Positions 7,541-63,660 of a DNA stretch of 64,000 bases are shown here, piece by piece. The translations under genes and the position numbers were made by a program. Numbering within the stretch: the first letter of the stretch is position 1; each line of letters begins with the position of its first letter. The notes below the pieces were generated by a model. That model did not search any database. It saw only the letters and a program-made list of their open reading frames with translations, and had not been told where the DNA came from. Source of the stretch: Malacoraja senta (lineage: Eukaryota); contig CM075990.1 of assembly GCA_038087875.1 (NCBI GenBank), positions 4,404,001-4,468,000 of the forward strand. Reading direction: 5' to 3'.

Positions 7541-7889
7541 AATTATTGCAAAAGTTGATAAAAATCAAATTATCTTATCCCTGGTATTCAACTAATGTCA
7601 GCCATCAAAAATAAAAAAAGCCTTCCTCAGGCAATTTTTGAAGAATGTAATTAGTTTGTAGGCTGCTCAGTTGGCAGACTCTTGTAAACACGGTGGTATT
7701 AAAGGACATCTTGTGCGCATCTTTCAGTCAAGAAAAATAGCAAATGTTGTGCTGCAGCTTGAGATATGCAAATTTCTAACAGTACAATCTTAGGTTTTGT
7801 AGGACATCCATGGACCTTGAAGATGTGTGCATTTCTCTTTTAGCGCAGTTTTTGAAAATAACAATCATAAGGGGATTTCAGAGGGTGTC

Positions 7890-8180
7890 CCTCCCTCACC
7901 CAAGTTGTATTAGTTTCAGTCGTCTTGTTGAGTCTCATTGTCTGTAACTCGTTTTCACCTAGCCCACAGCTAACAATGGTCTGTTTCCTTTATCCTTTAT
8001 TTACTTTTTTTGCATATCTTTCATTCATTTGTTCTGTATCTCTGTATATCACCGTCTATATCTCTAGTTTCCCTTTCCCCTGACTCTCTGAAGAGGGGTC
8101 TCGACCCGAAACGTCACCTATTACTTTTCCATTGAGATGCTGTCTGACAAGCTGAGTTACTCCAGCTTTTTGTGTCTATC
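7890..8180 (+). mobile_element. Penelope-like 3' terminal fragment with hammerhead core
   Basis: Similar to 45010-45360 and 27850-28170; contains CTGAAGAGGGGTCTCGACCCGAAACGTC at 8088-8115. Confidence 0.8.
8088..8115 (+). ncRNA. Minimal type I hammerhead ribozyme core (Penelope-associated)
   Basis: CUGAAGA, stem II GGGU-CUCG-ACCC, then GAAACGUC; conserved CUGANGA/GAAA/UH boxes present. Confidence 0.65.
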
Positions 8181-8302
8181 ATTAGGGTTTATTTTTGCTC
8201 TCACTGTCCCTTTCCAGTAAAGCATCTTATTGTTCATTTGGATGACCTCGCACCATCTGAAGCTGCCCACCATGATCTTCCTGGCTTTCAATTTTGGCAA
8301 AA

Positions 8303-8398
8303 AGATAGACACAAAATGCTGGAGTAACTCAGCGGGGCAGGCAGCAACTCTGGAGAGAAGGAATGGCTGATGTTTCAGGTCGAGACCTTTCTTCAGAC
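8303..8398 (-). mobile_element. Short Penelope-derived hammerhead unit
   Basis: Reverse complement of ctgaagaa..gtctcgacc.gaaac..cattccttctctccagag..ctgagttactccagcattttgtgtctatc; flanked by aattttggca / atttttgca (possible TSD). Confidence 0.8.
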
Positions 8399-9186
8399 TA
8401 ATTTTTGCATCTCCTTGTTGTTTTAGGTTCTATATATTCATTGATAAGTTAACCCTATTGAGTCTTGCATGTCCTTTGCAATAAAATGAAATATGTAGTT
8501 GATAGAATCGGATGTCAACTTTTAAGGTAGTGATAAATGGTAAGCACATTTTCAAATTAAGTATGGGAATCAGAGGGGAAAGTTAACTCCATCACGAAGC
8601 CCCACAAACGTAATGATGTGTGGGGCCCGGGAAAGTCTAACTTCCAATATTAAGTGCATGTTCCTGGACAATTCCAAGTCAGTCACCCATAACTAACACG
8701 TACTTTGGATAAAGCAATAAATCTGTATTCCATCTGCTCTCCCAGACAGAAGAATTTAATGGCGCTATTATGAAGAAATATCGGGGATATATCCGCCAGA
8801 GTCCAGGCAAAGGGTATCCCTAATCAACAACGTAGAAAAGAGGTGATGTTTTTAATCATCATCCTACTCATGGGAGCTTGCTATGTGCATACATTCCTAT
8901 ATTCGTTTCTCTATAACAACATTTCAAATTGTATGTAATTTGCTCTACAGTTCTTTAAAGTGCCCTAAAATTGTCAAGAATAATTTACTTCCAAAGTTGG
9001 AAAGTTGGCATTTTGGGAAGTTGGATAAGGGAGATATTTTTTCAAAAATGATTAAGCTATAGATAAATAAGGTACAAACATCTACTGCAAGAGCACTTTA
9101 GACCCCCAGTGATGAGTATCCCAGCATGGCTCGTATTGTAAATAAACATGATGGGAAGAGTCCATTGTAAAAATGTTATAAATTGT

Positions 9187-9317
9187 CTGAAGAAGGGTCT
9201 CGACCTGAAAAGTCACCCATTCCTTCGTTCCAGAGATGCTGCCTGTCCCGCTGAGTTACTCCAGCATTTTGTGTCCATCTTTGGTTTAAACCAGCATCTG
9301 CAGTTCCTTCCCACACA
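9187..9317 (+). mobile_element. Short Penelope-derived hammerhead unit
   Basis: Starts at CTGAAGAAGGGTCTCGACC and ends at gcatctgcagttccttcccacaca. Confidence 0.85.
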
Positions 9318-9517
9318 TAATGCATATATCTGTCTTAAGCTTTAAAAAGAAAGTCTGATACTTTCCATAAAATGTACCCTTGTCTGACTTTGTTTCCCAT
9401 TCTCTACTGAGTTGACTGACTTAGGGCACTTCCTCTCATTCTCATTAAGTCATTTGGGAAATGTCAAAATATATTCATGTTTCCCATCATCCTGCTTCTG
9501 ATTATCAGATTACCACC

Positions 9518-15551: not shown

Positions 15552-18439
15552 TGCCTTAAGTCTCCCAGTGGGAGATTGAGCTGTTCAAACAAAAATCTGC
15601 ACATGCTACAAATCGGCAGGGTGTCTGATTCCTTATTACATAGCTTGGTGTTGTTTTAAAAAATGTTGGTACACTGTGCACTAGCACCTCGCATAACATT
15701 CAGGATGTGTTTCCTGGAACAAGCACACTAATCAGTGCTGTAAGGAATAATTATAGCATTATGCAGACAAAGGTGCAGTTCCAGACTCCACGCCAATAGC
15801 TGTGCCAGGGATCTGACCTTCAACTTTCTGTACTATGCATCCTGACACCATTCAAGCAGTGAGTTGCCCCATGGCTTGGTGTGCAACAGTGACCTCTGAG
15901 GACTGGCATTCAGTGGTCCACTGTGAGCAATGCGATCGCTCAATGCTGACGTGTGGGGCTCGGTACTGCATCCTGGCCAGTATCCTGGCAGCATATCTCC
16001 ATCCTGGCACATCCTGGCAGCACATCTCCAAGTGTTACACTCTCTATACCAGCCAGGGTGCAACCCTCAAACCTGCTTCGCAGTACTAAACGCCCATAAA
16101 GTTGCTGCAGCTTGCCTGAAACTGACCTTCAGGGACACCCTTCCACCCACCCACCCTTCCCTTCCTGTGGTGATACTTTGCTGTATGAACGTGCGATGAA
16201 CACTATAGGCATAGCAGCATGCACCATAAGTAGATGTCTTTAGTGAAGTACAGCAGGGCATAAGAGTCTTTAGATTGGAGGATGAAAAACACTGTAATGA
16301 ATCAATACTTGGTACCAATTCAACTTAAAAATTGCCTCTTGTCAAAACTTAAAATCAAACAATTTTAATATGTGATCCTTTTAATTATTGGAAGCATTCA
16401 AATCTAGTTACTTCTAAGTTATTGATTAAAGAAAACAATAGTAGGTTTCTATTTGATTGTGTTTTATTTAACTTCCTTTGAACTCTTAATTTCTATGCCA
16501 GTGCCATATTAATTGAACAAAGTTCATTGTATTAAATCATTTTGTCAATCTAACTTGTAAAGGCTACTTTAAATTCAATTTCATTTAGTGAGTTTGTATT
16601 TTGTAACCTATTCTGTTTTTGTTTGGTGACCCCTTTGATCTGCAATTTCAATACTAGTTCCATATTAACTCTGAACACAAGCTTCACCAGTCATTTTTCA
16701 ACTAGTAACCCCTTTCTGGATTCAATTTAATTATTTTGTTCAGCAAACGTGTTCTGTATGTGTAACATTCTGGTTCTAAATTATTTGAGTGGCTCCTCTT
16801 GGATGACTGGACTTAATATTCTAAAATTACTGCATCATTAAATTAATTTAGTTTTGATCTGGCTTACTATACTTCCATGTGCAGTCTCATGTTTTTTCTC
16901 GTGTACATTTGAATTCCACATATGATGACCCTATCCAGAGATTCCAAGGCTGTTGATTTGCACCAGTCATTCACATAGAAAACGTTGCTGTTCTGTTTAG
17001 GCCTGAGCAGAGACTGCCGAATGGGAGTTACATGTCTCTTGAACATTTGATTGAGTTGCAGGGTCCAGGAACCTCATTGCTCACTCAGAGGATCGTTGGA
17101 TGATGTGGCGAGTGGTGGGGTCACGTTGGAGATGTGGCGAGTGGTGGGGTCACGTTGGACCTATTGCTAGTTTTGGTCCGTGGAAAAATGTTCTAAATCT
17201 GCCCCCTTGTTTTAGTTTCTCTCTTTCGAGCACTTCCACTCGTAGAATATTGAAATTTTAAATTCAATGAGCCCATATTGCAGAGGATAGGACTTCAGTT
17301 TGAGTCATCTTTCCTCATGATTTAATACCTTGGAGTCCAAGTATAATTTTAGTAAATCTACACAAACTATATTCCTTCTGAGCGGTGCCGAAGACTTTTC
17401 TCAGTACTCCAGGTGTGGTCCATTGTTTCTAGCTTTTCATTGTTTGGAAAGCTCTATCTTCTTTGTGTAAAATAGATGATCGCACGTGTACCTGACTCAA
17501 AATTTAATTGGCACTTTTTTGCCATTCATTTAACTGATGAGTATCCTGCAACAAATGTTTCACCTCCTGACTCTGCGATCTTTTCCAAAACCTACAAAGC
17601 AGAGATTTCTGTTCCCTTCCATAAATGAACGCAGCTCTTCAATGCTATCCAGGCGTTGCAGTTCATTGCCATCCAGAAAAAAAAATACACTTGACAAATA
17701 CATTTATACAATTATTCCTTGTGCCAACGGGTTCTCTGGCTACATTGTCTACCCGTTGCAAAATGCACTCACTACAACCATTCAACATGTCTGCTTCCAC
17801 AGCACCTTCCAAATCCAAATCTCACCATCTCAAAGGGCAAGGGAACAACTGCATGGTGCGTGGGAACAGCGATATCTGCAAATTCTCAACCTGTTTAAAA
17901 AAATATTTCCATTCCTTCATCATGCTGACTTTAAATACAGGAACTTCCTGTCAAGCAGTATTGTGAGATTACCGCAATCTCCTGGACTGTAGGGAGTTCA
18001 ACAGGCACATCTGCTTGAAGGAATATATGCTAGTTTTGCCCTCTTCGAAAAGAGGATCCTGAAAATTGTCTTGTAAATTTAGGCTTCCATCCATACAGCA
18101 ACCCTGCACATATTTCTTTCTTTGTTATTTAAGTCTTTAGCAAATATGACACAAGTTGAGACACTATGGACATTTTTGTAGGGTTCCATTTCACAGAGAA
18201 CCTTAACATCTGCCATTCAGCCAGTTTCCAAAGCATTTAGTAAATTGGTTTGAAATCCACGCAGCCACCCTAGATGAGTACACCACAGTCATCACAAGAT
18301 TCATCAGTCGAAGATAGAAATGCGTACCATAGAACTAAATTTGGGTGTCCCCCAATGGGAAACCATGCAACCTCTCCCTATAGAAGTCCAAATCGGGTGA
18401 CCCTGACCTATACAGGAAATCAAAGTATAGAAATCCAAG

Positions 18440-20464: not shown

Positions 20465-21270
20465 TAAGAACCTATGAATTAAGAGCAAGAGTGGGCCACT
20501 TGGCCCCTTAGGACTGTACTATCGTTTTACAAGATCATTGTCAATCTGACTGTAATCTCAATTTCACGTTCCTGGCTACCTGAGATACTCTTCCACCTCT
20601 TGCTTGTCGGGCATCCTTTTAACTCTGCCTTAAAAATATTCACCGAATCTGCTTCTTGCCCTATGTGGAAGAGAGTTCCCAGGAAATCCAACCTTCTGAA
20701 ATAAAAGAATCGCCTTACCAGTCTGAAGAAGGGACTCTATCTAAAATGACATCTGTCCATTCCCTCCACAGATACTGCCTGACCCACCGAGTTATTCCAA
20801 CATTTCATATTTTGCTCAGGATATCAACATCTGCAGTTCCTTATGTTATCTCATCTCTTTGTAGAATAAATGAATCCTTAATTTTAAACAGACAATTTTA
20901 AACAGTGACTTTGTTGAATAAATGACTCCTTAATTTTAATTTACAGTGTTGCCATACTCTCCCACAAGAGGAAGGATCCTTCCAGTCTTCAACCTCCCAA
21001 GACCCAATCAGAATCATATGTATTTCAATCAAGTTGCCTCGCCCTCTTGTTAACTCTGGTGAATTCAGGCCTAACTTGTCCAATCTATCCTCATTGGACA
21101 ATGCAACAATTTCAGATATTAAACCTCTTCTGAGCTTCTTCCAGCACATTTACGTCCTTAAATAAAGAGATAAACGTTACCACGTGAGGTCTCAAAATGC
21201 CTTGTATAACTGAAGTACAAGCTCTGGGATTTTGTATTCGAATGACCAGCAATACATGATAACATTCGGC
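20465..21270 (-). mobile_element. Degenerate CR1 LINE 3' fragment interrupted by a Penelope unit (~20722-20845, +)
   Basis: Minus ORFs: LRPHV...LEEAQKRF and DRLDKLGLNSPE...RGNLIE; 'gtctgaagaagggactc...acatctgcagttcct' inside. Confidence 0.7.
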
Positions 21271-26235: not shown

Positions 26236-28170
26236 TCCAAGATAGACTTTCGACTGATATATATTATAAACCCACTGACTCCCACAGTTATCTAAACTAC
26301 ACTTCCCACTCAGCTTCCTGTAAAGACTCTATCCTCTACTTCCAATTCCTCCATCTACACCGCATCTACATGGTAAATGGTAGCGAATTGAGGAATGCAG
26401 TTGAACAGAGGGATCTAGGAATAACTGTGGCATAGTTCCCTGAAGGTGGAATCTCATGTAGATAGGGTGGTAAAGAAAGCTTTGGTGTGCTGGCCATTAT
26501 AAATCGGAGCATTGAATATAGAAGTTGGGATGTAATGTTAAAATTGTACAAGGCATTGGTGAGGCCAATTCTGGAGTATGGAGTACAATTTTGGTCGCCT
26601 AATTATAGGAAGGATGTCAACAAAATAGAGAGAGTACAGAGGAGATTTACTAGAATGTTGCCTGGGTTTCAGCAACTAAGTTACAGAGAAAGGTTGAACA
26701 AGTTAGCTCTTTATTCTTTGGAGCGCAGAAGGTTAAGAGGGGACTTGATAGAGGTCTTTAAAATTATGAGCGGGTTAGACAGAGTGGACGTGGATAAGCT
26801 TTTCCCATTGAGAGTAGGGAAGATTCAAGCAAGGGGACATGACTTGAGAATTAAGGGACAGAAGTTTAGGGGTAACATTAGGGGGAACTTCTTTACTCAG
26901 AGAGTGGTAGCTGTGTGGAATGAGCTTCCAGTGGAAGTGGTGGAGGCAGGTTCGATGTTATCCTTTAAAAATAGATTGGATGGGTATATGGACGGGAAAG
27001 GAATGGAGGGTTATGGTCTGAGTGCAGGTAGATGGGACTAGGGGGAAGTTTCCGTGCTGTTATGGTTATATGGTTATATGGTTATCTGCGCCCAGGATGA
27101 GGTGTTCCACACCAGAACATCTGAGATGTCCCCATTCTTTAGGGAACGGGGGGTTCCCCTCTTCCATCAGAGACGAGGCCCTCACTAGGGTCTCCTCGAT
27201 ATCCCGTAGCTCTGCTCTTGCTTCCCCTCCCCCAGTCACAACAGGGATGGAGATCCCACTAGTCCTCATCTTTCACCCCATCGTCCGTCGCATACAGAAC
27301 ATAATCCTCCGACATTTTCGCCACCTCCAACGGGATCCCACTATTAGCCACATCTTCCCATCTCCAACCCTTTCCGCTTTTTGCAGACACCAATCCCTCC
27401 GCAACTCCTTGCTTAATTCAGCCCTTCAACCCAAACTACCCTTTCCCAGGTATTCCCACCCCCTGCAACTGCAGGAGATGCAACACCTGTCCCTATATAT
27501 CCCCCCTCGACTCCGTCCAAGGACCCCGACAGTCTTTTCAGGTGAGGCAGAGATTCACTTGCACCTCCTCCAACCTCATCTACCGTAACCGCTGTTCCAA
27601 GTGAGGACTCGGCGAGACCATGCACAGGCTTGGCGATCGTTTCGCTGAACACTTCCGCTTAGTCCGCCTAAATCTACCTGATCTCCGTTTGCTTAACACT
27701 TTAACTCCCCCTCCCATTCTCATACTGACCATTCTGTCCTGGGCCTCCTCCATTGCAGAGTGAGGCCCAGTGCAAATTGGAGGAATAACTCCTCATATTT
27801 CGCTTGGGCAGCTTACAACCCAGTGGTATGAATATTGACTTTTCTAACTTCAAGTAACCCTTGCTCTCCATCCTTCCCCCTTTCCCAGTTCCCCGACCAG
27901 TCTGACTGTCCTCGATTACATTTTATCTGTTTGCTTTGTTCTTACATCTATTCTACATTTTCCTTTAACTGCATCCTCTTTGTCTTGCTTTCACACCTTA
28001 CACTTCCTCATCTCTGTATCTCCCTCTCCCCTTACTCAGTTTGAAGAAGGGTCTCCACCCGATTCGTCGCCCATTCCTTCTATCCAGAGATGCTGCCTGT
28101 TCCGCTGAGTTACTCCAGCATTTTGTGTCTATTTTTGGTTTAAACCAGCATCTGCAGTTCCTTCCAATAC
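26236..28170 (+). mobile_element. Penelope-like retroelement, 3' part (RT thumb + GIY-YIG endonuclease + terminal repeat), interrupted by CR1
   Basis: DRLSTDIYYKPTDSHSYL..CKDSILYFQFLHLHRI|CAQDEVF; IPLVLIFHP..HLQRDPT; CNCRRCNTCPY; FTCTSSNLIY..GET..RLGDRFAEH; degenerate hammerhead at ~28041-28068; frameshifted. Confidence 0.9.
26368..27083 (+). mobile_element. CR1 LINE 3' fragment ((TTATATGG)n family) nested in Penelope
   Basis: ORF 26487-27041 is a CR1 RT C-terminus; ATCT duplicated at 26364-26367 and 27084-27087; removing the insert restores Penelope ...cgcATCTgcgccc. Confidence 0.95.
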
Positions 28171-28660
28171 ATAGAAGTTGGGAGGTTTTGTTACAGTTGT
28201 AGAAGACATTGATGAGGCCAAATTTGGAGTGTTGTGTTCAATTTTGGTCATCCTGTCATTCCAATTTTGGAAAGATGTTGTTAAGCTGGAAAAGATGCAG
28301 AAAAGATTTAGCGGATGTTGCCAGGATTCGAGGACCTGAGCTATAAGGAGAGCTTGAGCAGGCTAGGCTTGGAGTGTCGGAAGATGAACGATGATCTTGG
28401 AGAAGTATAATGAGAGATTAGTAGGATAAATGCATAGTCTTTACCCAGAGTAGGGAATGAAGAACCAGAGGACGTAGGTTAAGGTGAGGGAAGGAAAATG
28501 TAATGAACCTGAGGGGCATTTTTGTTACACAAGGGTTGGTGGGTGTATGGAACAAGTTGCCAATGGAGGTAGTTGAGGCTGGTACTATCACAACGTTTGT
28601 AAGACATTTGGACAGGTACGTTGACAGGATAAGTTTAGAAGGGTATGGACCAAACACAAG
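28170..28660 (+). mobile_element. CR1 LINE 3' fragment
   Basis: LMRPNLECCVQFWS-like sequence; VGVWNKLPMEVVEAGTITTFVRHLDRY. Confidence 0.85.
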
Positions 28661-35741: not shown

Positions 35742-36110
35742 ATGATGCTGGTGTAAACCGAAGATAGACATAGAAAGCTGGCAGCATCTCTGGAGAGAAG
35801 GAATGGGTGACCTTTTCGGGTTGAGACCCTTCTTCAGGCTGGTTAGGGATAAGGGAAACGAGAGATATAGATGGCGATGTGAAGAGATAAAGAACAATGA
35901 ATAAAAGATATGCAAAAAAGTAAAGATGATAAACGAAACAGGCCATTGTTAGCTGTTTGTAAGGTGAAAATGGGAAGCGAGTGCAACTTGGGTGGGGGAG
36001 GGATAGAGAGAGAGAGGGGGAGGGATAGAGAGATGGGGGGGGGGGGGGTGCCGGGGCTACCTGAAGTGAGAGAAATCAATATTCATACCACTGGGCTGTG
36101 AGCTGCCCTT
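35742..36110 (-). mobile_element. Penelope 3' fragment with degenerate hammerhead
   Basis: Minus: gggcagctcacagcccagtggtatgaatattgatttc...cctgaagaagggtctcaacccgaaaaggtcacc. Confidence 0.85.
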
Positions 36111-36639
36111 GGGATGTAAACAGCAGTGGTTTTCAGATTGTACAATGTCAGTGCAGGATCGCTCAATTTGCTACAATCTGGATGGGGCAATTTAGAAGAT
36201 TTTGTATATCAAAAAAAAATCTGATCTGGAGGATAACAGACTATTGAAAAACATAAGGGAAAGGGCAATATGATTCATGGGGTGATGGTGGAGAGATAAC
36301 ATGACTGTTGACTGGAAAAAGCTCCAAATGCTGGAAATTTGAAATAAAAACTGAAAATGCCCGAGGCATTCATCGGGTCAGGTGAGAGAAGCAGAATCAA
36401 CACTTTGAGTCAATGATCCTTTGTCAGAACTGAATAACTGACAAAGGAACCTTGTTTTGAGTTAACCAGGAACAAAAAACATCTGTGATGTCAAGGTAGC
36501 CATAAAATTAAATACAGTTAAGATAGAAAAGTAAAGGAACAAATTAAAATATGAACCAATGTCACTCAAGAGAAGGAAAAGTCAGACTACCCACTATTGA
36601 GACCGAAGGGTACAACATTCTCAAAGATTGATAATGAGA

Positions 36640-37400
36640 TACTCGAACTTATGTTTGGCTTTGTTGGTACAGTATAAGATGTGAAATTGAGAATAGGTGG
36701 AGAATCAAAGTGTCAGGCAACTGGAAGCTTGGGATCAACCCTGTGTGCTGAACAAGGTATTCCACAAGAATGTTACCCAAACTGTGTTTAGTTTCTCTGA
36801 TGTAGAACAGACTTCATGAGCCCCAAATTCTCTGAACTATATTGGAAGAACTGCAAGTGAATGACTGTTTCACAAGGAAAAATCATTTGATTCCCCAGAT
36901 GCAGGAAAGGGAATAGGTAAAAGCACAAGTGTTGCATCTGGTGTGGTTGCATGGGATACTGTGAGAAGGGGTGTGGTTGATGGAGATAACCAGGGAGTTG
37001 TCCTCTTGGAATGTGGAGGGGAAGATATGTCTGGTGAGGAATCATCTTGAAGGATGCATTTAACTATGGAGAATGATCAGTTGAATATGGAGGATATTGG
37101 GGGGGGGGGGAAGGGGGGAGGAGGTGGAGGATAAAAGGACCAGGGAAATTCTATTTTGGTTGCAGCTGAGAGAATATAGAAAGAAAGTATGTATTAGAGG
37201 GACTGCAAACGAAACTTCCATTAATAAAATGGCAGACCAAATGGTTGAAGAAAAACCCAAAATGTGGAAAGATTCAACAGATGAAGATGAAGAGACTGGG
37301 AGCATGGAATAAGATTTGTACATGGAATAGGATGGAAGGAGATACAGTCAAGATAGCTGTGGAAGTTTGTGTAATTACAATGGATATTGGCAAATATTTT
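36640..37400 (-). mobile_element. Degenerate Penelope coding remnant
   Basis: Minus-strand traces of YTNFHSYLD, ISLVL and PCNHTRCNTC; similar to 26236-27850. Confidence 0.6.
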
Positions 37401-37414
37401 ATCTGGATATAGGC

Positions 37415-37578
37415 ATAAAATGCTGGAGTAACTCAGCGGGACAGACAGCATCTCTGGAGAAAACGAATAGGTGACGTCACCAATTCCTTTTCTCCAGAGA
37501 TGCTGTCTGTCCCGCTGAGTTACTCCAGCATTTTGTGTCTATGGTTTAAACCAGCATCTGCAGTTCCTTCCTACACAT
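37415..37578. mobile_element. Inverted pair of Penelope terminal units
   Basis: aaaatgctggagtaactcagcgggacagacagcatctctggagaaa ... tttctccagagatgctgtctgtcccgctgagttactccagcatttt; near-perfect hairpin with TGACGTCA in the middle. Confidence 0.88.
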
Positions 37579-38694: not shown

Positions 38695-40216
38695 TAATAG
38701 TGAGGATTTATTCTCTTCCACTTCTTCCCCCATTAAATTCAAGACAAATGAGGAAAGGACTAAAATGGAAATTGCACTCTTTTCTAACCTGTATGTTGAG
38801 TCAGTAATCTGCATTTGGTGTAAAGGATTAAACAAGAATAAAAATTTAAATGTACATGCTGCTGAGTATATAATTTCCATTAGATTATATGATTAGAGCG
38901 ATTCCTGTTCTATCCCCATAAATAAAAATGATCTGCCCCTTTCTATAAATGAACTATACCAATCAAGCCCTAACTTACATTTGCCTCAATAGCTTAATTT
39001 TCCCCCCTTAAGAGATCTCACTGGTGCTAAACAACCACACATACTTGCCACATTGCCATTCATGCTTAAGCCTTAAAAAGAGTGTTGGCAGCTGTCTTAT
39101 TTTTGCAGGTGACATATCCAAAAGCTTTAACTCTGGTCTGCTCCGAGAAGTGGCCATCGGACAATGGATCCATTTCATCAAGAGAGACAGTATCAATGCC
39201 CTCCTATCTGAAAGGGGCAACTTTCACCTTGCATTTTCAAAGAAATGAAACTAGTAATGCAGTTGCAAAACTTTATTTTGACTAGATTGGTTGAATATAT
39301 TCCTTTTGGGCAGAATAAAGTGCTTGTCAGTAATTTATTATCAAACTTCACGACCAATCTGCGGTATAGCCATGCCACGTGACCCATTACGTTTTTTTTA
39401 ATGCCATGTCAGGCCAAAGGCTCTATCAGAATGACCTGTTTCACTCTGCACTGATGCTGCCTGTCCTGTTTGTTTTGAGCATTTTGTTATTATTTTCAGA
39501 TTTCCAGCATCAAATAATCAGAGGGCTTAGAATTAAAGTAATTGGTAGAGGTCAAATATTAAAGAAAAATATGCAATGTTGCAAATGTAAAATACTCTAG
39601 CTGCTGGAAATAAAAACAGAAAAATCGGAAATGCTTAGCAGTTCAGACAACTACTGTGAAAATAGAACTGGCTGATGTTAGAGTTAAAGAGATTTTGGAT
39701 GCACAGAAAGGGAAGCAGAGAGCAAAATGGTGGCGTGTTCGGGTTACCTCGATTTCTCTCCTTTGAAGCTACCCAGTCTGCTGAATGTTAACAGCATTTT
39801 CTGTTATTTACGGTGTTGCAATTTAGAATAAACTACTTGAAAGGGCAATAGAAGCAGATTCCATAATAATAACTTTCAGAAGCATTAGATACTTTCTCAA
39901 GGCAAAAGTAAGTTGCATTCTTTGGATAGTTCTGTGGGTCAATAAGACTTATCCTACCATACTCTTCGCAGGTACTGTCAACAATTAACAATTTATATGT
40001 AATGCCTTTTCCCCCTCTTTATTTACTACCTAAGGTCTTTACAATTGTTTTGTTTTTACTTTGATTCAGCCTGATGTTACATTACAGTAATATAAAGGTA
40101 AAATAGAAATACACATTCTGCCAGTAATTGGGAAGATGAAGAGAAAGTCTTAAATTCTGAAGCTCATTCTATAAGCTATGATATATTTCCCTGCACCCTG
40201 GGACTGAAAACCCCCG

Positions 40217-40313
40217 AGATAGCCACAAAATGCTGGAGTAACTCAGCAGGACAGGCAGCATCTTTGGAGAGAGGGAATGGGCGACATTTTGGGTCGAGAC
40301 CCTTCTTCAGACT
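40217..40313 (-). mobile_element. Short Penelope-derived hammerhead unit
   Basis: Reverse complement of agtctgaagaagggtctcgacccaaaatgtcgcccattccc...ctgagttactccagcattttgtg. Confidence 0.85.
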
Positions 40314-41790
40314 GTATAATGCCTGCTTTATTATATACTCCCTATATACTGTACAGAACCACAAACACCATGTTTATTGTACATTCAGTTTAACATGCTT
40401 TATTAACTGCACTATAAGTGGGGAGGCAAAATGTAGATTTGTGATCCCTTTCTTAAACACATCTAATCAGCCTGCAACTTCGACTCGGAGCTACCAATTT
40501 AATTCTCTGCTTTCACTGTAACCTTTTTGCTTTTGGCCTCTGACTCTATTTTAATGCAGGTCAACAGAAGTTCAAGGGTTACAGCACCTTACACTTTTTA
40601 CCTTAGAACACGTTCAACCGATTCAACAATTTGAAATCCCAACCAACACCACCACAGTTTCTGAATTAATCATTTCCATGCTGCCATTTGCAGTATTCCC
40701 AAAGCTAATCTTTTATTTCTTATTCCCATTCCCATCTCCGTTAGCCCTGTTGGCATGCTAACTCTTTTGGCATTTAATAATTCCTTCTACCTGAGAACAG
40801 ACCTTTTATTCAATCTTCTATTTCTTCAACACATTTTTGTCGGAGTACTTAATGGCTGTGTACTATCCAGTTCTAACAAATGGTCTCCAAGTTAAAGTGC
40901 TAACTCTTGTCCTCTTCTCACAAATGCCGGTAAGTATTACTAGCAGTTATATGATGGTACTTCTGAGGTGCTTGCTTAGATAATTAGATAATATCCATCT
41001 TCAGAATCTGAAGTTATGTTTGTGAGTTGAGACTAACAGTGCCTGTATGTTCTTAATCTGTTGTGATCGCAAACAGCGTGAGCACTTGCTCTGATTTTAA
41101 TCACGAAGTACTATGCGACTAACCCCGCAGTTCTAATAATTAATATTAGAACTCTTCTGTCTTTACTATGTGGAAATAGCTAGAAATGTCAATATCAATC
41201 CAGGGCATCCTGCTCAAGTAGTCCTTGGTAGTGGTTTCCCTCCTAAACTTGTAAAGTAGCCACTCAAACTTTACTGAGGTGTGCAGTGATTGTCAGCAAA
41301 CATTTTGCAAAAATGAGCTCAGTTTTTCCTCCTGCCCTTTCTTGTCATGTGCTGCTGTTTGGATCCACAAACCAATGAAAAGTTCTGTTGTAAATAGAAG
41401 TGAAAATAGCCCAAATATTAAAACGGAATGGGAACAAAGCGCTGATCTTATGATGTAAAAGACACAAACACTTGAAGTTCAATGAAAAGTAGGAATTTTT
41501 TTAAAGCGCTGAAGGCAGCTGGAAAGAAGAAAAACATAACAATGTTTCTTAATAAACATAAGTGGGGAAGTTATAGCATTAATGATAAAGATAATAATTG
41601 GCCTATATACTAATGCAGAGAGCATAACAATAAATAAAGCAAGGGTATTCCAAGAATGTAGTGCACTGATTTGGAAGAGATGCAAGTGAATTACTTCTTC
41701 ACCTGGAATAAATGTCACTGCATGCTGCAAAGGAGAAAGGTAACACAGCAGGTGTTGCATCGCCTGTGGCAGCATGGGAAGCTGCCCTGT

Positions 41791-42108
41791 GGGCGGCACG
41801 GTGGCACAGCGGTAGAGTTACTGCCGTACAGCGCCAGAGACCCGTTTTGATCCCGACTACTAGCGCTGTCTGTGCGGAGTTTGCATGTTCTCCCTGTGAC
41901 CACGTGGGTTTTGTCCGGGTGCCTCAGTTTCCTCCAGCATTCCAAAGAAGTGCAGGTATGTAGGTTAATTGCCGTCTGTAAATTGCCCCTAGTACGTAGG
42001 ATGCGTAAGTGGGGTAACAAAGAACTAGTATACGGTCATAGACCAGTATCGTTGGACAGCGTGGATTTGGTGGACCGAAGGGCCTGATTCCACGCTGTAT
42101 TGTCTAAA
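41791..42108 (+). mobile_element. HE1-like tRNA-derived V-SINE, full length
   Basis: gggcggcacggtggcacagcggtagag (A-box), ttttgatccc (B-box-like), V-domain ggagtttgcatgttctccctgtg, tail ccgaagggcctgattccacgctgtat. Confidence 0.9.
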
Positions 42109-42346: not shown

Positions 42347-43135
42347 CATGGTATTGGTAGCGAATTGAGGAATGCAGTTATATGGTAAATGGTAGCGAAT
42401 TGAGGAATGCAGTTGAACAGAGGGATCTAGGAATAACTGCATAGTTCCCTGAAGATGGAATCTCATGTAGATAGGGTGGTAAAGAAAGCTTTTGGTGTGC
42501 TGGCCTTTATTAATCAGAGCATTGAGTATAGAAGTTGGGATGTAATGTTAAAATTGTACAAGGCATTGGTGAGGCCAATTCTGGAGTATGGTGTACAATT
42601 TTGGTCGCCAAATTATAGGAAAGATGTCAACAAAATAGAGAGAGTACAGAGGAGATTTACTAGAATGTTGCCTGAGTTTCAGCACCTAAGTTCCAGAAAA
42701 AGGTTGAACAAGATAGGTCTTTATTCTTTGGAGCGCAGAAGGTTAAGGGGGGACTTGACAGAGGTCTTTAAAATTATGAGAGGGATAGACAGAGTTGACG
42801 TGGATAAGCTTTTTCCATTGAGGGTAGGGAAGATTCAAACAAGAGGACATGATTTGAGAATTAAGGGACAAAAGTTTAGGGGTAACATGAGGGGGAACTT
42901 CTTTACTCAGAGAGTGGTAGCTGTGTGGAATGAGCTTCCAATGGAAGTGGTGGAGGCAGGTTCGATTTTATCATTTAAAAATAAATTGGATAGGTATATG
43001 GACGGGAAAGGAATGGAGGGTTATGGTCTGAGTGCAGGTAGACGGGACTAGGTGAGAGTTAGTGTTCGGCAAGGACTAGAAGGGCCGAGATGGCATGTTT
43101 CCATGACGTAATTGTTATATGGTTATATATGGTTA
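42347..43135 (+). mobile_element. CR1 LINE 3' fragment ((TTATATGG)n family) with 5' duplication
   Basis: Open ORF 42455-43051 (198 aa) near-identical to the 9518 and 26368 copies; tggtagcgaattgaggaatgcagtt occurs twice at the 5' end. Confidence 0.95.
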
Positions 43136-44759: not shown

Positions 44760-45360
44760 AGATGCAAGGAACTGCAGGTACTGGTGTACAGAAAATGACA
44801 CCAACTGCTGGAGTAACTCAGCAGGTCATGGAGCATCTTTGGAGAAAAAGGATAGGTGACGATTTGGGTTGTGATCTTTCATGGAAACGTGATGGTTGTC
44901 AGTGTAATAGTGAGCTGGAAATGATCAGGAGCCAAACAACTAAGGATAGGTGTGTAGGAAGGAACTGCAAATGCTGATTTAAACCGAAGATAGACACAAA
45001 CAGACACAAATTGGAGCATCTCGTATTTCACTTGGGCAGTCAGTTTACAACACAGTGGTATGAATATTGATTCTTCTAACTTCAAGTAACCCCTGCATTG
45101 CCACCCTCTCTCTCCATCCCTCCCCCACCCAAGTTGCACCAGCTTCGCATTCTCACCTAGCAATCAACCAACAATGGCCTGTTTCCTTTAACAACGTTAC
45201 TTTTTTGCATATCTTTCATTCATTTGTTCTACATCCCCGTGCATATCTCTCGTTTCCTTTTCCTCCAACTCTCAGTCTCAACCCGAAACATCACCCATTC
45301 CTTCTCTCCAGAGATGTTGCCTGTCCCGCTGAGTTACTCCAGGATTTTGTGTTTATCTTC
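44760..45360. mobile_element. Cluster of Penelope 3' fragments (minus at 44760-44875 and 44950-45010; plus at 45010-45360)
   Basis: ttggagcatctcgtatttcacttgggcag...gtggtatgaatattga...cagtctcaacccgaaacatcacccattcc. Confidence 0.8.
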
Positions 45361-45894
45361 AGGTACGAATAGGGCCATGTTAATCCCGCTGGATCGAACA
45401 AATAGGGCAGTGCTATATGGCAGATAATGGGTCTGCCTGAATGGAATGGATAAATGTTAGAATGCAGTCTTCTAAATCCTTAAACCCCAAAACCTTTGGG
45501 AAGCCTGCATAAAGTTTGTTTAACCTGATGGTCTTTGCTGAAGAAAAAACATCCAAATCCCTTTCCTGGAATAAGAGACCATGTGACCTGTTTATTGCTA
45601 TCGTGTGCAGAAAGTTCTGAAATATGGGATTGATTAGCTGCCACTGCTTGGTAAGATGCTGAGTCAAAGTTGTCTTGGCGTCAACAGGCAGAGATGTTGT
45701 AGCCATGGTTCTTGCTGTAAAAAGTGAGCATCACCTCAGCGTAACCTTGGAGACCTTTTCCTTGGAGTCTATGATGAATTGGACACAGATGTGTGCAATA
45801 GCGTCTTTAAATGTGAGCTCTTTGCCAGCCATGTTTGCTCTGGTTCACCTGACCTATCATTCTTCCTCACAAAATACATGGTTCAGTGTCATGT

Positions 45895-45988
45895 CTGAAG
45901 AAGAGTCTCGACCCGAAATGTCACCCATTCCTTCTCTCCAGAGATGCTGTCTGTCCTGCTGAGTCACTCAGCGTTTTGAGTGTATCTT
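45895..45988 (+). mobile_element. Short Penelope hammerhead unit with TSD
   Basis: CTGAAGAAGAGTCTCGACCCGAAATGTC...; flanked by tggttcagtgtcatgt (45879-45894) / tggttcagtgctgtgt (45989-46004). Confidence 0.85.
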
Positions 45989-48577
45989 TGGTTCAGTGCT
46001 GTGTTCTTGTTACATTGGGTGTCCTCCTGACTTCAGATGAGTGGTTCTTCTTCTCATAATTATCCAATCTGTTAGAAGCCATTTTGTCCCTGCAGTTGCT
46101 CAGCACTCAGCTCGCGTTCCACATTTCTATTGCTCAGCTGCAAATTGAGTGGTTGTTTTAAGGACTCTGCCAAAGTTAAATTTTGCTTGCAGTGAATTTA
46201 AACAAATTTCTTTCCAATTAAACTACATGTTTGAAACATTGATGTTTGTTGAGTCTTTCTTTCAGTTGGCTACAAAATAAAATACTGAATGATTTATATT
46301 AGCATATAATATTGTATAAAAGTGCCAGCATGATAGGTGACATCTTAGTGAGGAAAATATATGATGTGATCATATTCAGAGGAAAATCTATATCTTTCGC
46401 TCTCTTTACAATGTTCCCACCTGTTCTTTATTTTCGCACATTTTCTTTATGCCTATCGACTTTGTCAGTTTTCAGAGCAATCCTGACCTCCCACATATTT
46501 CCAGGTAACTGCTCTATAGCTTGCTTATAAACTTCATCCCTGTTTTTCTACTGCCTACCTAAACCAGGGATAATTTGTTGCAGCCAAAACCTAGAAAATC
46601 CCAATGTGTGGATGGAAACTGGAGCACCTGGAGGAAACCCACACAGTCAGGTTAGGATCTTACCTAAGTGGCTGGAGCTGTGCGAATGCAGCAAAGCTTT
46701 ATTAACTTGCAGGGGGGGGAGTGATTTAAATGCTCAAGCCAAAAGAAAACAATGATATACAAGCTGGGGGAAAGGGAATTGCAATGGAGAACCCTTGATG
46801 AAATAAAAACCTTGAGTTAGAGGATCCTGTTGAAGCGTTAGTCATTTTATAATTTCTCTACTTTTTAATCAAGGAACTGAGGGTCTGGGAACTGGTACAG
46901 AAGAGGAGATGAGGCCTAGGGCAGATCAGCCATGAATAAGGAGGTAGGCTTGAGGGGCAAGTGACCTCCTCCTGCTCCTATTGTCTTATGTTCTTATACA
47001 TTTTTTATTAAAGAAGCACTGTGCCTCGCTCATAACTTAAATTACCAATTGACAAATGACAAATTTAATATTTTGACAATATAGTTTCTCTACTAGATCG
47101 AAATACTTGTATTTCTCTTGAATCTCAGCTCTCAAATTGTTCAGTAGCTGTTTAACGTGGGTGGAGCGATTATGCTTGTTAAATAGTGGTAGAATTACAA
47201 GCAGGTCTCCACAGCGAATCCTCGATTGAAACATTTTCGAGGGTTGCAACTCTGCAGAACCTTTTATGAATTACAAATTCAATTGAAAACGTAAGTTAAA
47301 CATTACATGCACTTTGCTGAACCATATGTTCCTGTAATTGCATTGTATTGTATTACAATTCAGAGCAGGAAGGGGAGAGAGTAATTGTTGCACAAATGTC
47401 TGCTTGCACGCAGAGACAAAAAAAGTCAATAGATTGACCCAAGCTTGGAATGTGGTGTGCCCTGCTGCCAGATAGTAGTGTGATTGGTTCATAGTGCTGT
47501 GTGTGTGTTAACCTTGGAAATGGTCCAACACCCTGTAGTCTCAAGTGGCTGACATGGGAATCTGTCACTGCCTTCATTTGAGGCACTGACTTTGTTCTCC
47601 CCTCCTAAGATGTTTGTTGTCGGTTCTTTGCAGTAAGGAGCTTTTCATAATCCGAGAGTCATGGATGTGTGAAAAGCAGGCCACAGGTCCCGGGTTGTTT
47701 CCCCTTGTGAAAATAAGATGTGACATGAGCCTCCCCTCTCTCCCACTAATTTGTCGTCCTCATGAATGTTGTTCAGAACAACAATTAAAATAAAATTCGC
47801 CAAGGTCCCAAGGAACACGCAGATCAAGTTATTAATGGTGGAAATGACTACTGATGATAATTACAGCTCATCCTTTTACAAATGCCTTCGACATGTTTAG
47901 CCATTCACGAATAATAGCACCGGGTCAGTAGGTCAAATCCCCAGAAACAAGGGGCCAAAGAAAAGCAATGCTAGTCTTCTATTCATCTGAGCACAAATCT
48001 GATTTGTGTCGCATTGATATTTTAATTACAGAGGTTATTTCACCAGCCTTGTAGCATCTAATTTATTTGGGGACACCCTAATCCTGACAACCCATATTAT
48101 TGTAATGACAGAACCTGATTGAAGTAGGATTATCCATTCTTCTGAGTGAATTAATTGAAATGCACCAATGAATGTGCATTATGGAAAGATGGAAGTTACC
48201 CGTACTACTTATTGTTTGGAATAAATTGTCGGGCTTTACATTTTTTAAAAAAGTGAAAATTAAGTCTATACACATTGTTCATGCGCTGCAACTTAAAAAT
48301 AAATCACAAGAATGTGCTTTGAAGGGTATAATCTTGTGTCAAGACTTGAATTTGGTTAATTACTGTTTAGTTGTTTGGTCTCCAGTTGTCTGTTGGCATT
48401 TGATTTACGGATGCTTAACACAGACACCTGAATGAATGTGAGAGCATTGAATTTATTGGACTGTTTCTCCGCTTTGCTTTTCAACACACTTAAATACTAC
48501 CGGTACCTTTTTTAAAACAAAATGTAATTGGTTTGCGAAGCAAATCTATTTGCAAGTTCTGCTACTTGTGTTACCTG

Positions 48578-48783
48578 GAGTAACTCAGCGGGACAGGCAG
48601 CATCTCTGGAGAGAAGGAATGGGTGACATTTCGGGTCGAGACCCTCCTTTGGAGTCTGAAGAAGGGTCTCGACCCGAAATGTCACCCGTTCATTCTCCCC
48701 AGAGATGCTGCCTGTCCTACTGAGTTACTCCAGCATTTTGTGTCTATCTTCAGTTTAAACCAGCATCTGCAGTTCCTTCCGAC
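48578..48783. mobile_element. Inverted pair of Penelope hammerhead units with 14-bp TSD
   Basis: Minus unit 48578-48645 and plus unit 48653-48783; acttgtgttacctg at 48564-48577 and 48784-48797. Confidence 0.92.
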
Positions 48784-48859
48784 ACTTGTGTTACCTGTGT
48801 ATTTCTGAATGCCAATGACATGATGGGGATAAATCGTTGCCGTTTCATGGTTGGAGTGG

Positions 48860-50339: not shown

Positions 50340-51295
50340 AGCAAAAAACAGAGTGCTGGAGCAACACAGCAGGTCAAGCAGCATCTCGAGGAAACATAGA
50401 TAGGTGATGTTTTGGATCGGGACACTTCTTCAGACTAGGATCTTTGCAAGAGGCAGGATGGGAAGAGGTGAGGTCCGGATGACCAAGGGGGTCAGTGTTT
50501 ATAGTAGATGCCAGTTGATAGCCTGTCCCCTGTTGGGGAGGCAGAGAGATTGAGAAAGGGGAGAGATGTATCAGAGATAGTCCAAGTAAATTTGAGGGCA
50601 GGGTGAAAGTTAGTGGTGAAGTTAATGAAATCAATCAGTTCTGCATAGGTGTAGGAGTCCGCCCCAATGCAGTCGTTGATGTAGTACTGTAAAAGTTTGG
50701 GGATGGTGCCAGTATATGTTTGGAACAAGCATATTCAACATAAAGGCAACAAGCAAAAGGCAGGCAAAGCTGGGGCCCATGCGAGTGCTCATGGCTACAC
50801 CTCTAACTTGAACAAAGTAAGAGGATTCAGAAGATTAGTTGCTGAGGACAAGTTCCATCCGCCGCAAGAGAGTGTTAGTAGAGGGGAACTGATTAGGTCT
50901 CTGTTCAAGGACGAACTGGAGGGTCCTGAGACTTTCCTTGTGGGGAATGGAGATGTAAAGGGACTGGACATCCATGGTAAAGATGAGGCGATGGGGGGCC
51001 TAGCAATAGAAAGTTATTGAAGTGTTGAAGAGTGTATGAGGTGTCTCAGATGTTAGACATGGGGTTGGGGGGGACAAGAAAGAATCAATGTAGTTAGTGA
51101 TGAATTCTGTGGGACAGGAGCAAGCAGAAACAATGAGTCTGCCAGAGCAGCCCTGTTGGTGGATTTTGGGAAGGAGATAGAAGTGGGAAGTACAGGGCTG
51201 GGGAATTATACGGTTGGAAGCTATGGAGGGAAGATACCAGAAGTGATGAGATCAGTTACGGCCGTTGAGATGGTGGGCTGGTGTTCACGTATGGG
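50340..51295 (-). mobile_element. Penelope RT fragment fused to terminal repeat (internally deleted)
   Basis: GVAMSTRMGPSFA, YYINDCIG (RYIDD-like), NFHPALKFTWTISDTSLPFL, HPASCKD joined directly to agtctgaagaagtgtcccgatccaaaacatc. Confidence 0.85.
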
Positions 51296-58756: not shown

Positions 58757-59687
58757 ATAGAGATAATTCTTCTGTCATCAGCTGTGGAGGTCTTCCTTGG
58801 CCTGTCAGTCCCTTTGCAATTAGTAAGCTCACCAGTGCTCTCTTTCTTCTTAATGATGTTCCAAGCAGTTTATTTTGGTAAGCCTAATGTTTGGCTGATG
58901 TCTCTAACAGTTTTATTCTTGTTTCTCTATCTCATAATGGCTTCTTCGACTTTCATTGGCACAACTTTGGTCCGCATGTTGATAAACAGCAATATAAGTT
59001 TCCCAAGGTATTGGAAAGACTGGAGGAAAGACTAGGTGCTGAGAGCTCTCTGATACCTGCATTAAGGAGGCATTTAAACATACCTGAGCAATTACAAACA
59101 CCTGTGAAGCCATGTGTCCCAAACATTATGGTGCGCTGAAATGGGGGGACTATGTATAAACACAGCTGTAATTTCTACATGGTGAAACCAAAATGTATAA
59201 CCTTTAATAGAAATAACCTTTAATAGAATCTAACAATGTGCACTTTAACCACATGTGATTTTTTTTCTATTACAAATCTCAAATTGTGGAGTACAGAGGC
59301 AAATAAATAAATGACGAGTCTTTGTCCCAAACATTATGGAGGGGACTGTGAACAGTGTATATCATGTTATTTTTGATGTGTGTCATTATCACTTTATTTG
59401 TCTGGAGTGTAAGAGCATTGTCTGTAGTGTAAGCATTTGAGGTTCATCTTAACATGTAAAATGCTGCAATGTTGGTCTTCGGCATCTGACTCCAATAATC
59501 TTGAATTGGATTGTTCATAATTTGTTTTCATTCAGTTGTCTTGTGCATGTAAAATGGTAGAAAATTAACTAACTTGCTCCTTCAGGAAATTTGCTTTGTT
59601 TGGAAGCTACGCTGATTGTATCTTTTTATTAGCATGCATAGATGTAAAGGATCAAATGGATTCATTCGATCATGTAACTTCTTTTGA

Positions 59688-59855
59688 AGATAGACACAAA
59701 AACCTGGAGTAACTCAGCGGGACAGTCTGAAGAAGGGTCTCGACCCGAAACGTCACCCATTCCTTCTCTCCGGAGATGCTGCCTGTCCCGCTGAGTTACT
59801 CCAGCTTTTTGTGCCTATCTTCGGTTTAAATTCGCATCTGCAGTTCCTTCCTACA
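59688..59855. mobile_element. Penelope hammerhead unit with inverted 5' piece and 17-bp TSD
   Basis: Minus piece 59688-59725 plus plus-strand unit from 59727; catgtaacttcttttga (59671-59687) / catgtaatttattttga (59856-59872). Confidence 0.9.
59727..59754 (+). ncRNA. Minimal hammerhead ribozyme core, best-preserved copy
   Basis: CUGAAGA-A-GGGU-CUCG-ACCC-GAAACGUC; palindromic ACGU forms an abbreviated stem III. Confidence 0.7.
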
Positions 59856-60328
59856 CATGTAATTTATTTTGATCACTTTGTTTGGCATCTCAGTAGCTGA
59901 GTTAAATAAATGCATGCAGTTGCTCTAAATCTTGCGCATCGACTTATGGGCTCATTCTTCTCCTATTACTGTGCATTGTGCATCATTTGTTTTATGTACC
60001 AGAACTAAGCATTGAACATATTTTTGGGGGTTGCAAGGAATTTTCAGTGCCTAGCACAATTACAACAGACTATATTTTTGAAGTGAAGAGCTGCTCCAAG
60101 TCTGATACCAAACAAAGTTAGGGCTGCTAATGGTTGGGAATCATCTTTGCATTGACTTTGAGAACTGAGAGAGTGTGGTTTTCCACTTGGATACAAATCA
60201 TTCCCGTTTAAATTAAATACATAGATTACCTTGGAGTTTGCATAAAGAATGCTAAAGTGTGAAAACTGGTGTAACTTTCTCTCAGAAGTATTTCTAAAAG
60301 GGTTGTAAACAATTGTGTAATCATCATA

Positions 60329-60430
60329 GGTAGACAAAAGTGCTGGAGAAACTCAGCGGGTGAGGCAGCATCTATGGAGCGAAGGAAATAGGCAACGTTT
60401 CGGGCCGAAACCCTTCTTCAGACCTTCTTC
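60329..60430 (-). mobile_element. Penelope hammerhead unit, second subfamily, with 10-bp TSD
   Basis: Minus: AGGT-CTGAAGAAGGGT-TTCG-GCCCGAAACGTT-GCCT; aatcatcata at 60319-60328 and 60431-60440. Confidence 0.9.
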
Positions 60431-60477
60431 AATCATCATAATTGTCTTGTAATATTGGCATCAGGTGCTTTATGAAT

Positions 60478-62525: not shown

Positions 62526-63456
62526 TAAAAAAAAAAAAAAATTTAAATTATTTTTATTAGAAGTACGGTAAATTACAGTAATACACAACACATATATCTT
62601 AATACATTTTTTGTACCGCTTCATTTTTTTGAGCTTTAAAAGAAAGATAGAAGTAAGAAAAGTAAAGAAAGTGCGCAAGAGTCGTGAAGTGCAAGAGAGT
62701 TTTGGGAAAAGAAAGCCCCTTAGAAAAGAAGTTAGAGAAGGAAGTAAAGTAAGAAAGTAGACCCTAGAAAAGAAAGAAAAAGAAAGTAGGAACAATTGCA
62801 GAAAGGGACTACCAACCAAGTCTGTTTTTGTTGTTTTACCTCCCATTACCAGGTCCTGATACCATTTATTTATTTATTTATTTATTAAATTACTATTGCA
62901 CCTCATGCTTGTAATAGGTTCAGAAACGTAGACCACGTCTTTTGGAATTGGTCTGCTTTACCTGCTAAGAGGAATCTCATCTCTTCCAGATGTAATGTTT
63001 CAAACATATTTGATGTCCACATTTTTATTGTTGGTGTGGGCGCATTTTTCCAGAATTTAAGTATGAGCTTTTTTCCCATTATTAGCCCGTAATTGAATAA
63101 ATTCTTCTGATACACGTTTAATTCAGGGATACCTTCCGATATTCCAAAAATGATCCATTCTGGTTTTGGTACCAGTTTTATTTTAATTAATTTTGAAAAA
63201 ATATCAAATATTTCATACCAGAATTTTTGGATTTTTGTACAAAAAACAAAAGAATGCGCTATGGTAGCTTCTTGACATAGACATTTATCACAGATTGGTG
63301 AAACATTAGGAAAGATTTTATTTAATTTAGTTTTTGAATAATATAGTCTATGTAATGTTTTGAATTGGATAAGCGTATGTCGTACGTTGATCGAACATTT
63401 ATGCACCTGTAGTAAATGATTATCCCAGCTCTCTTTTGAAATTTTTATAGCTAATT
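62526..63456 (-). mobile_element. L1-clade LINE, 5'-truncated (ORF2 C-terminal zinc domain + 3' UTR)
   Basis: IQFKTLHRLYYSKTKLNKIFPNVSPICDKCLCQEATIAHSFVFCTKIQKFW; AATAAA near the end; 12-bp TSD CATATTCCAAAT at 62514-62525 and 63457-63468. Confidence 0.92.
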
Positions 63457-63504
63457 CATATTCCAAATATTTAACGCGGGTGATGTTTCCCCTACCCATC
63501 TGTG

Positions 63505-63660
63505 AAGCTTACTAGGGCCCTGGGTCTAAGACTTACCTGGAGCTCAGCAGGGCCCTGGGTCACACACTTCCCTGAAGTTTACCAGGGCCCTGGGTCACAT
63601 CAGAGCCCTTGGTCCCTCCCTTGTCTGAAGCTCACCAGGTTCCGTGAAGCTCTCTGGGGC
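63505..63660. repeat. Degenerate ~35-bp minisatellite
   Basis: Recurring (gaagct/ggagct)..cagggccctgggtc core, 4-5 copies. Confidence 0.7.

Follow-up and report, generated by a model that had tools for sequence, protein, structure and literature searches.

Solo Penelope end-pieces with a hammerhead motif and a fixed 5' boundary in a 64-kb stretch of Malacoraja senta DNA

A stretch of 64,000 nucleotides from contig CM075990.1 of Malacoraja senta, here called the window, contains many short units with a hammerhead-like motif. Their presence raises the question of whether they form an independent mobile family or are pieces of a larger element, and why so many of them begin at the same base. The window consists of animal DNA rich in repeats, with a GC content of about 41%. 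The 28-mer motif of these units has 8 matches at up to 3 mismatches in the window, compared with 0 in 100 shuffles. With the copy at 59727 as the query, blastn and nhmmer find 27 arms of the module, spread over 22 sites at an average spacing of about 2.9 kb; a weak 28th match at 39453 (E 0.08-0.37) is left out of this count. All arm statistics given below have this one 64-kb window as their sample. A preliminary description had named about 15 recurrences, and pattern search, blastn and nhmmer find the module at all 15 positions. Three of these copies are incomplete or changed: the one at 13271 is a fragment in inverted orientation next to a copy whose start falls within helix II, 12 nt of the hammerhead core are missing at 45275, and 28041 has TTGA in place of CTGA. 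The same description spoke of units of about 100-210 bp. Units of about 100 and about 135 nt do exist, and the module length is two-valued rather than continuous; the supposed single units of 170-210 bp do not stand, as 59686-59857 and 48575-48785 are head-to-head inverted arm pairs. Altogether, five inverted pairs of adjacent arms occur among the 27 arms.

The origin of the module is indicated by a decayed Penelope-like element at 26236-28170, behind whose GIY-YIG region the motif had already been noticed; the module (28038-28172) indeed ends this element. The copy is split by another repeat at 26367-27050, and a CX4CxxC linker is found in its frame 27071. Pfam gave a domain match for 0 of 4 decayed Penelope frames of the window, and a word-indexed protein search with these frames gave no match. 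With phmmer, they retrieved 337 relatives, one of which (P0006) spans all three window pieces of the Penelope. Of seven relatives scanned, three long ones (P0037, P0051 and P0117) contain RVT_1 followed by GIY-YIG. A CX2-5CxxC linker ahead of the endonuclease is described for Neptune and Nematis and as absent in Poseidon (PMC8557442). On the strength of its domains and linker, with the reverse transcriptase (RT) core lying outside the window, the parent is classed as a Neptune-type EN+ Penelope-like element; the linker points to Neptune or Nematis, not to Poseidon. Further decayed Penelope coding fragments without an adjoining module lie at 650-853, 17098-17140, 36670-36976 and 41661-41822.

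The motif of the module at 59727 consists of a 2-bp helix I, CUGAAGA, a bulged A, a 4-bp helix II, GAAA and the palindromic ACGU. Minimal type I hammerheads are characterised by the core, a bulge after A9, the G10.1-C11.1 pair and a palindromic 15.2-16.2 (PMC4209133). Comparison by hand with this published form finds the CUGANGA/GAAA core, all of these features and an NUH site in both the 59727 and the 60421 copy, in agreement with the earlier assignment to the Penelope-type minimal hammerheads. The Hammerhead search that had been proposed alongside did not bear it out: with Rfam, no hammerhead appeared at the gathering score in the window, nor at E up to 10 in 59650-60460. The weak Rfam matches that do occur are attributed to the inverted arms. 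The core is intact in 8 of the 14 copies with a full head, and the 15.2-16.2 pair is likewise preserved in five of these eight. Differences at non-CpG core positions number 5/140 compared with 101/763 elsewhere (p = 5e-4), a figure biased in favour of core conservation by the choice of the 14 copies for a recognisable head.

Helix I of the window family comprises only 2 bp, U-A and G-C. Among 105 related loci from other sources, three helix I positions, which the search pattern left free, pair in 96-98 cases, with A-U and C-G; the difference between the window family and these loci is a predicted double compensatory change. Neither for the monomer nor for the dimer does the predicted minimum-energy fold take the active shape, and the fold stability of the module is nothing unusual (z = -0.22). 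In the reading favoured below, cleavage by the hammerhead would require a dimer or the help of a protein. Further downstream, 59770-59777 and 59834-59841 can form a long-range helix (AGATGC/GCATCT) that, together with a hairpin at 59787-59804, is conserved about as well as the core. This helix and hairpin are candidates for an RT-binding signal around the two RT start sites discussed below.

The most distinctive property of the module is its 5' end. Ten arms end 1-3 nt before CTGA, namely those at 8396, 9187, 20723, 40310, 45895, 50433, 59727 and 60421 and both arms at 48656. The 5' ends of the 27 arms are thus divided into 10 at this boundary, 6 that run upstream into the 3' UTR (4 by alignment; 14240 and 62093 are assumed) and 11 inside the module. 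The statement that many copies begin at or just before CTGAAGA is therefore correct, with 10 of the 16 arms that reach the 5' edge of the hammerhead falling within 3 nt. Against a rate of 0.005 ends per nt, this accumulation in a 5-nt window has P = 6e-13, and the harshest test, which drops two dependent arms, raises the hazard fourfold and allows for 50 windows, still gives P = 7e-4. The boundary is seen in at least three subfamilies of different age and is common to short-ended and long-ended copies. Both arms of 48575-48785 reach it, and other Penelope sequence is joined exactly to it at 60424-60430 and 50436; at the latter junction, an RT-thumb fragment meets the boundary, and more than 1 kb of the element is skipped. 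The boundary lies ahead of the catalytic core and not at the cleavage site, which implies that it is not made by ribozyme cutting. A boundary at the cleavage site was considered as a candidate and ranked low; among the 27 arms, none has its start at the predicted cut.

The 3' ends are equally regular. Thirteen of the 27 arms end at a short site about 97 nt into the module, ten at a long site at about 134 nt and four elsewhere. The two sites are some 35 nt apart, which agrees with the optional tail of 30-40 bp described for PAc, a Poseidon element of the green anole, where it lies between two internal RT start sites on unprocessed RNA; in this element, both target strands are nicked and extended (PMC11167929). 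Contigs from 4 of 23 listed public runs were aligned on 27760-28220 (at least 16,502 to at least 210,603 records per run). Among the rows listed, the most frequent loose 3' ends in all four runs are 28130/28132 and 28163/28165, and in run X1 the two sites account for 701+1128 and 1125+1493 contigs. These ends fall a few bases short of the true ones because the reference copy differs there. Loose ends are also found at 28065-28085, where private hammerhead changes of the reference blur the boundary. The depth of the module in these runs is 12-42 times that of the ORF end, a figure that is no copy number.

In the same contigs, short and long 3' ends are also joined tail to tail on opposite strands (309 contigs in X1, 305 in X3, 280 in X5 and 30 in X15, the last perhaps an RNA run, among the rows listed). 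These joints connect 28128-28132 with 28163-28172; no short-short or long-long joint is present among the 15 rows listed, and the window contains no case. The endonuclease may produce them by cutting existing copies at the short site.

Copies that begin at the boundary, called stubs here, appear at least partly as insertions in their own right (Table 1). The direct repeats reported to flank 48564/48784 (14 bp), 59671/59856 (17 bp with 2 mismatches) and 60319/60431 (10 bp) are all present, the first and last being exact. The repeat of 10-16 bp reported at 45879/45989 is exact over 10 bp, and its extension to 16 bp requires three adjacent mismatches. Target duplications scoring at least 10 flank 4 of 19 insertions tested, compared with 3 of 300 random site pairs. 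The claim that the stubs are retrotransposed with duplications of their own is right, with clear duplications of 10-17 bp at these four; one further insertion has a borderline duplication, and 14 have none. The repeat at 8290/8400 (10 bp with 1 mismatch) is inside the chance range. At 48784, 59856 and 45989, the right duplication overlaps the last 2-5 bases of the element, which suggests pairing of primer and template at the start of reverse transcription. The extra bases at 60424-60430 are likely due to a template jump after run-off, and the pair at 37396-37578 was likely joined by annealing at the ACGT palindrome, not by cleavage.

Table 1. Coordinates of modules, flanking duplications and related features in the window
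Feature	Position	Strand	Remark
Left target duplication	59671..59687		17 bp, 2 mismatches to 59856-59872
Inverted arm of 40 bp whose outer end is the short 3' site	59686..59725	-	Joins the direct arm via shared 2-3 nt (CAG/AG)
Direct arm, whole module from boundary A (59724) to the long 3' site	59724..59857	+	
Minimal type I hammerhead motif, intact	59725..59756	+	Predicted cut after 59754
MTE-like (9/12), Bridge part I (5/5) and DPE-like (5/6) bases	59741..59756	+	+18 to +33 from boundary A
Right target duplication	59856..59872		First 2 nt common with the element end
Target duplication pair	60319..60328 and 60431..60440		10 bp, exact
Second-subfamily stub, boundary G to short 3' site	60329..60423	-	Intact hammerhead core
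Seven extra bases	60424..60430	-	Copy the element's own GAAGAAG
Near-palindromic arm pair, both arms at the boundary	48564..48797	48575-48653 -, 48653-48785 +	14-bp exact duplication
Boundary stub 45893-45988, short-site end	45879..45998	+	Duplication of 10 bp; 5' junction with 4 additional bases
Boundary stub 8300-8399, short-site end	8290..8409	-	Possible duplication abutting boundary A
Boundary stub, long-site end	9185..9318	+	Duplication search: none found
Boundary stub, short-site end	40216..40313	-	Duplication search: none found
Older boundary stub, end near the long site	20720..20850	+	
Older stub, boundary (50436) fused directly to a Penelope RT-thumb fragment (50437-50560)	50346..50560	-	
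Truncated copy, ORF end, 3' UTR and module	35743..36143	-	
Inverted pair; the minus arm stops at the long site, and the plus arm spans ORF end to short site	44951..45362		Core of the plus arm short of 12 nt
Truncated copy, about 200 nt of 3' UTR ahead of the module	7888..8181	+	
Inverted pair centred on the palindromic ACGT of the hammerhead	37396..37578		Short site left, long site right
5'-truncated, decayed Neptune-type Penelope with RT thumb, CX4CxxC linker, GIY-YIG, 3' UTR and module (28038-28172)	26236..28172	+	

The boundary coincides with an initiator-like sequence, YCAGT, directly ahead of the hammerhead. When the A at -3 is taken as +1, the ORF-linked copy at 28041 fully matches TCAKTY, YYANWYY and BBCABW. 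At the spacing tabulated in PMC4581360, bases similar to the downstream promoter elements MTE, Bridge and DPE follow inside the hammerhead; only 2-3 of 4 bases of Bridge part II match. Among 767,492 shuffled positions, 7 show a full YYANWYY combined with MTE 9/12 and DPE 5/6, and when the bases of the element itself are shuffled, the combination turns up 15 times in 200,000 trials. Of 14 offsets compared, -3 fits best; the consensus motifs are loose, and the match was spotted after the fact. The MTE-like bases coincide with those demanded by helix II and GAAAC. A promoter role of 59741-59756 would be in line with the internal, TATA-less, DPE-containing promoter of D. virilis Penelope (PMC2377424) and with the Inr-like site of the rotifer pseudo-LTR, which also has an inverted arm, a tail and duplications of 8-10 bp (PMC3846280). 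In D. virilis, the start is about 120 nt upstream, with 46 nt and a 75-nt intron preceding the intron end that abuts helix I (PMC2377424, PMC4209133).

Taken together, the stubs are somewhat more plausibly than otherwise solo pseudo-LTRs, products of an RT that primes in the module copy at the 5' end of an uncleaved transcript and runs off where that transcript begins. Transcription would start at the initiator A directly before the hammerhead, with the downstream promoter bases inside it, and the full transcript would carry the module at both ends; the window has no full-length element, and this terminal arrangement is presumed. The endonuclease would nick both target strands, and the RT would start at two internal sites of the unprocessed RNA, as in Poseidon (PMC11167929). 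Priming in the 3' copy of the module would yield ordinary truncated elements, and priming in the 5' copy a run-off cDNA of 100 or 135 nt, that is, a solo pseudo-LTR. Priming on both nicked strands would produce the head-to-head arm pairs. The stubs would likely be dead ends, because the RNA that the anole element requires extends past the two sites of RT initiation (PMC11167929). Stubs of the main subfamily are 85-91% identical to each other and 83-92% identical to ORF-linked copies, an equality that by-products should display. This run-off reading is opposed by the more upstream start in D. virilis, by the fact that the mechanism was worked out on Poseidon and not on Neptune, and by four related families without a pile-up.

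The preliminary description had left two options open, extremely truncated Penelope insertions or a non-autonomous retrozyme- or SINE-like family. Neither option fits in the form given; the Penelope origin assumed in the first is upheld. Ordinary random 5' truncation is scarcely conceivable as the source of the stubs: it cannot crowd 10 of 16 arms into a 5-nt window, even though most Penelope insertions are described as truncated single terminal repeats (PMC4209133; 10.64898/2026.07.22.740005) and 11 of the 27 arms end inside the module and 6 upstream. The second option lacks support on several counts, with 0 tandem arrays in the window, 0/9 permuted copies, no tRNA head and stubs no closer to each other than to ORF-linked copies; this last relation leaves a separate SINE-like family unsupported. 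A tRNA gene search for a SINE-type head found none, and an ordered pair of A and B boxes is present in 0/7 units, with only overlapping one-mismatch matches near the 3' end. A variant driven by Pol II, in which each stub is expressed from an internal promoter of its own and copied back in trans by the Penelope RT, is unlikely. In its favour, boundary A is kept at 6/9 stub sites along with all downstream promoter-like bases, three stubs have regained a full YYANWYY from the flank, the density and the excess depth of the module are as noted above, and the 60421-type subfamily has 3 copies in the window, none of them linked to an ORF. The equal identities given above speak against it. Moreover, the minimal RNA of the anole element extends past both RT starts, so that a stub, by analogy, lacks part of the protein-binding signal (PMC11167929), and short-ended stubs, if transcribed again, could not give rise to long-ended copies. 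It is also rather doubtful that the hammerhead, as DNA, serves as a core promoter and each stub of 100-135 bp as a portable Pol II start, recopied by the Penelope RT as a SINE-like partner and scattering start sites every few kb over a vertebrate genome.

Similarly unlikely is an RT stop. Here a longer RNA would begin upstream, and reverse transcription from the 3' copy would halt or jump to another template directly beyond helix I owing to RNA structure or bound protein, so that the stubs would be hot-spot truncations. This would fit the position of the boundary at the outer edge of the 2-bp helix I and the 6 of 16 arms that read through into the 3' UTR, as with a leaky stop, and no 5' copy of the module would be necessary. 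However, the module has no stable fold, related loci with the longer helix I show no stop, and the Inr-like match and the unpaired CA kept before GT would be left unexplained. Far less probable is an origin from small RNA circles that dimeric hammerheads of tandem arrays cut and ligate, as in non-LTR retrozymes. Retrozymes are reported to derive from pseudo-LTRs (10.64898/2026.07.22.740005), the core is often intact, and 32 head-to-tail contig joints occur in X1 among the rows listed; these joints nevertheless make up less than 1% of the 3' loose ends among those rows, a tandem module array is absent among the 25 TRF rows of the window, none of the 9 boundary sites has the unit's own 3' end before it, and the short-ended copies show no permutation. 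The chance is just as slight that the boundary is a 3' splice site and that the stubs copy spliced RNA whose shared first exon was lost or never present. A pyrimidine tract and CAG do precede TCTGA in ORF-linked copies, and the D. virilis intron ends at helix I (PMC4209133). Against this, the 9 boundary sites have no exon in common upstream, and target sequence begins 0-7 nt away from them. A GT donor is missing at the RT-thumb junction (50436), as is an AG at the boundary position in related loci.

Pieces of this kind are already known as Penelope pseudo-LTR end-pieces, and the fixed 5' boundary is a new detail that can be tested. The pseudo-LTR has been described as a truncated second copy of the element (PMC8969392). 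Those of EN+ Neptune-type elements (Craig 2021, PMC8557442; Arkhipova 2013, PMC3846280) resemble the window family in the C-terminal GIY-YIG with its CX2-5CxxC linker, the inverted arm, the optional tail of 30-40 bp, the short duplications and the solo copies. Their second copies, as described there, are variably truncated, whereas the modules in the window share one 5' end. Solo copies in rotifers lack duplications and are ascribed to recombination or deletion (PMC3846280); solo modules in the window can have duplications and occur at SINE-like density. PAc (Frangieh 2024, PMC11167929) is alike in its two 3' sites one tail-length apart downstream of the hammerhead and, as far as may be presumed for the window, in the uncleaved RNA template and the extension of both strands. 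It belongs to another clade, and the available account of it mentions neither a fixed 5' boundary of genomic stubs nor a site of transcription initiation. Metazoan minimal hammerheads (Cervera and de la Pena 2014, PMC4209133) share the core, the A9 bulge, G10.1-C11.1, 15.2-16.2 and a mostly single, dispersed occurrence. Helices I and II have 2 and 4 bp here, compared with 4-5 and 7-8 bp in Schistosoma; D. virilis likewise has a helix I of 2 bp (PMC4209133). An overlap of the hammerhead with core-promoter-like bases is not mentioned in the accessible text of that study. Non-LTR retrozymes (Cervera 2020, PMC7229834; Li 2026, 10.64898/2026.07.22.740005) are also non-coding, hammerhead-bearing and derived from pseudo-LTRs, and dispersed monomers exist. 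They are defined by tandem repeats of 150-450 bp, each with a hammerhead, and by circular RNA, while the window module shows no array, a minimal instead of a canonical hammerhead and no permuted copies. In the literature covered, which excludes subscription papers, Lunse 2017 and Frangieh figure S2 (genomic ends), a 5' boundary fixed at an initiator next to the hammerhead is not described.

The formation of Penelope pseudo-LTRs and the role of their hammerhead are the questions on which these stubs bear. If the boundary is the transcript start, the stubs would be natural strong-stop products that mark this start and both RT starts in one unit of 135 bp. They would then also be an in vivo sign of an uncleaved RNA template, and the excess of hammerhead-bearing end pieces over coding copies would be explained. 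A promoter role, if true, would provide a second reason to conserve hammerhead bases that cut poorly. If the boundary is a mere RT stop, the stubs would be an abundant but ordinary Penelope remnant.

Outside the window, exact family patterns found no match in viral, metagenome and genome contigs. A looser pattern retrieved 121 loci of other Penelope families, 28 of which have a protein match to the window element; 105 distinct loci from metagenome contigs serve for comparison only. BBCABW is present at the same offset in 37 of these 105. In the four larger related families, none of the 69 copies has its end at 10 nt or less from the motif, a count from local alignment, which can over-extend in AT-rich DNA; three loci (L003, L080 and L099) appear by eye to be joined near -3. 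One family of metagenome loci (among L001-L120) has clustered long 3' ends at 113-120 nt in 9 of 21 cases. A further locus (L121, from genome contigs) consists of an animal-type Penelope end with a hammerhead in a record titled as a bacterial MAG and likely represents host contamination.

The window harbours other repeats as well. Truncated LINE-like copies, 93-96% alike and ending in short TATGGTTA repeats, are located at 9741-10440, 26367-27050 and 42379-43135, the second of them inside the Penelope copy. A stop-free frame of 479 aa on the minus strand at 57335-58774 matches RVT_1 (E 4.6e-19) and belongs to a non-LTR retrotransposon unrelated to the module. On the same strand, a 200-aa frame at 62903-63508 has a weak zf-RVT match and is probably an L1/Tx1-type fragment.
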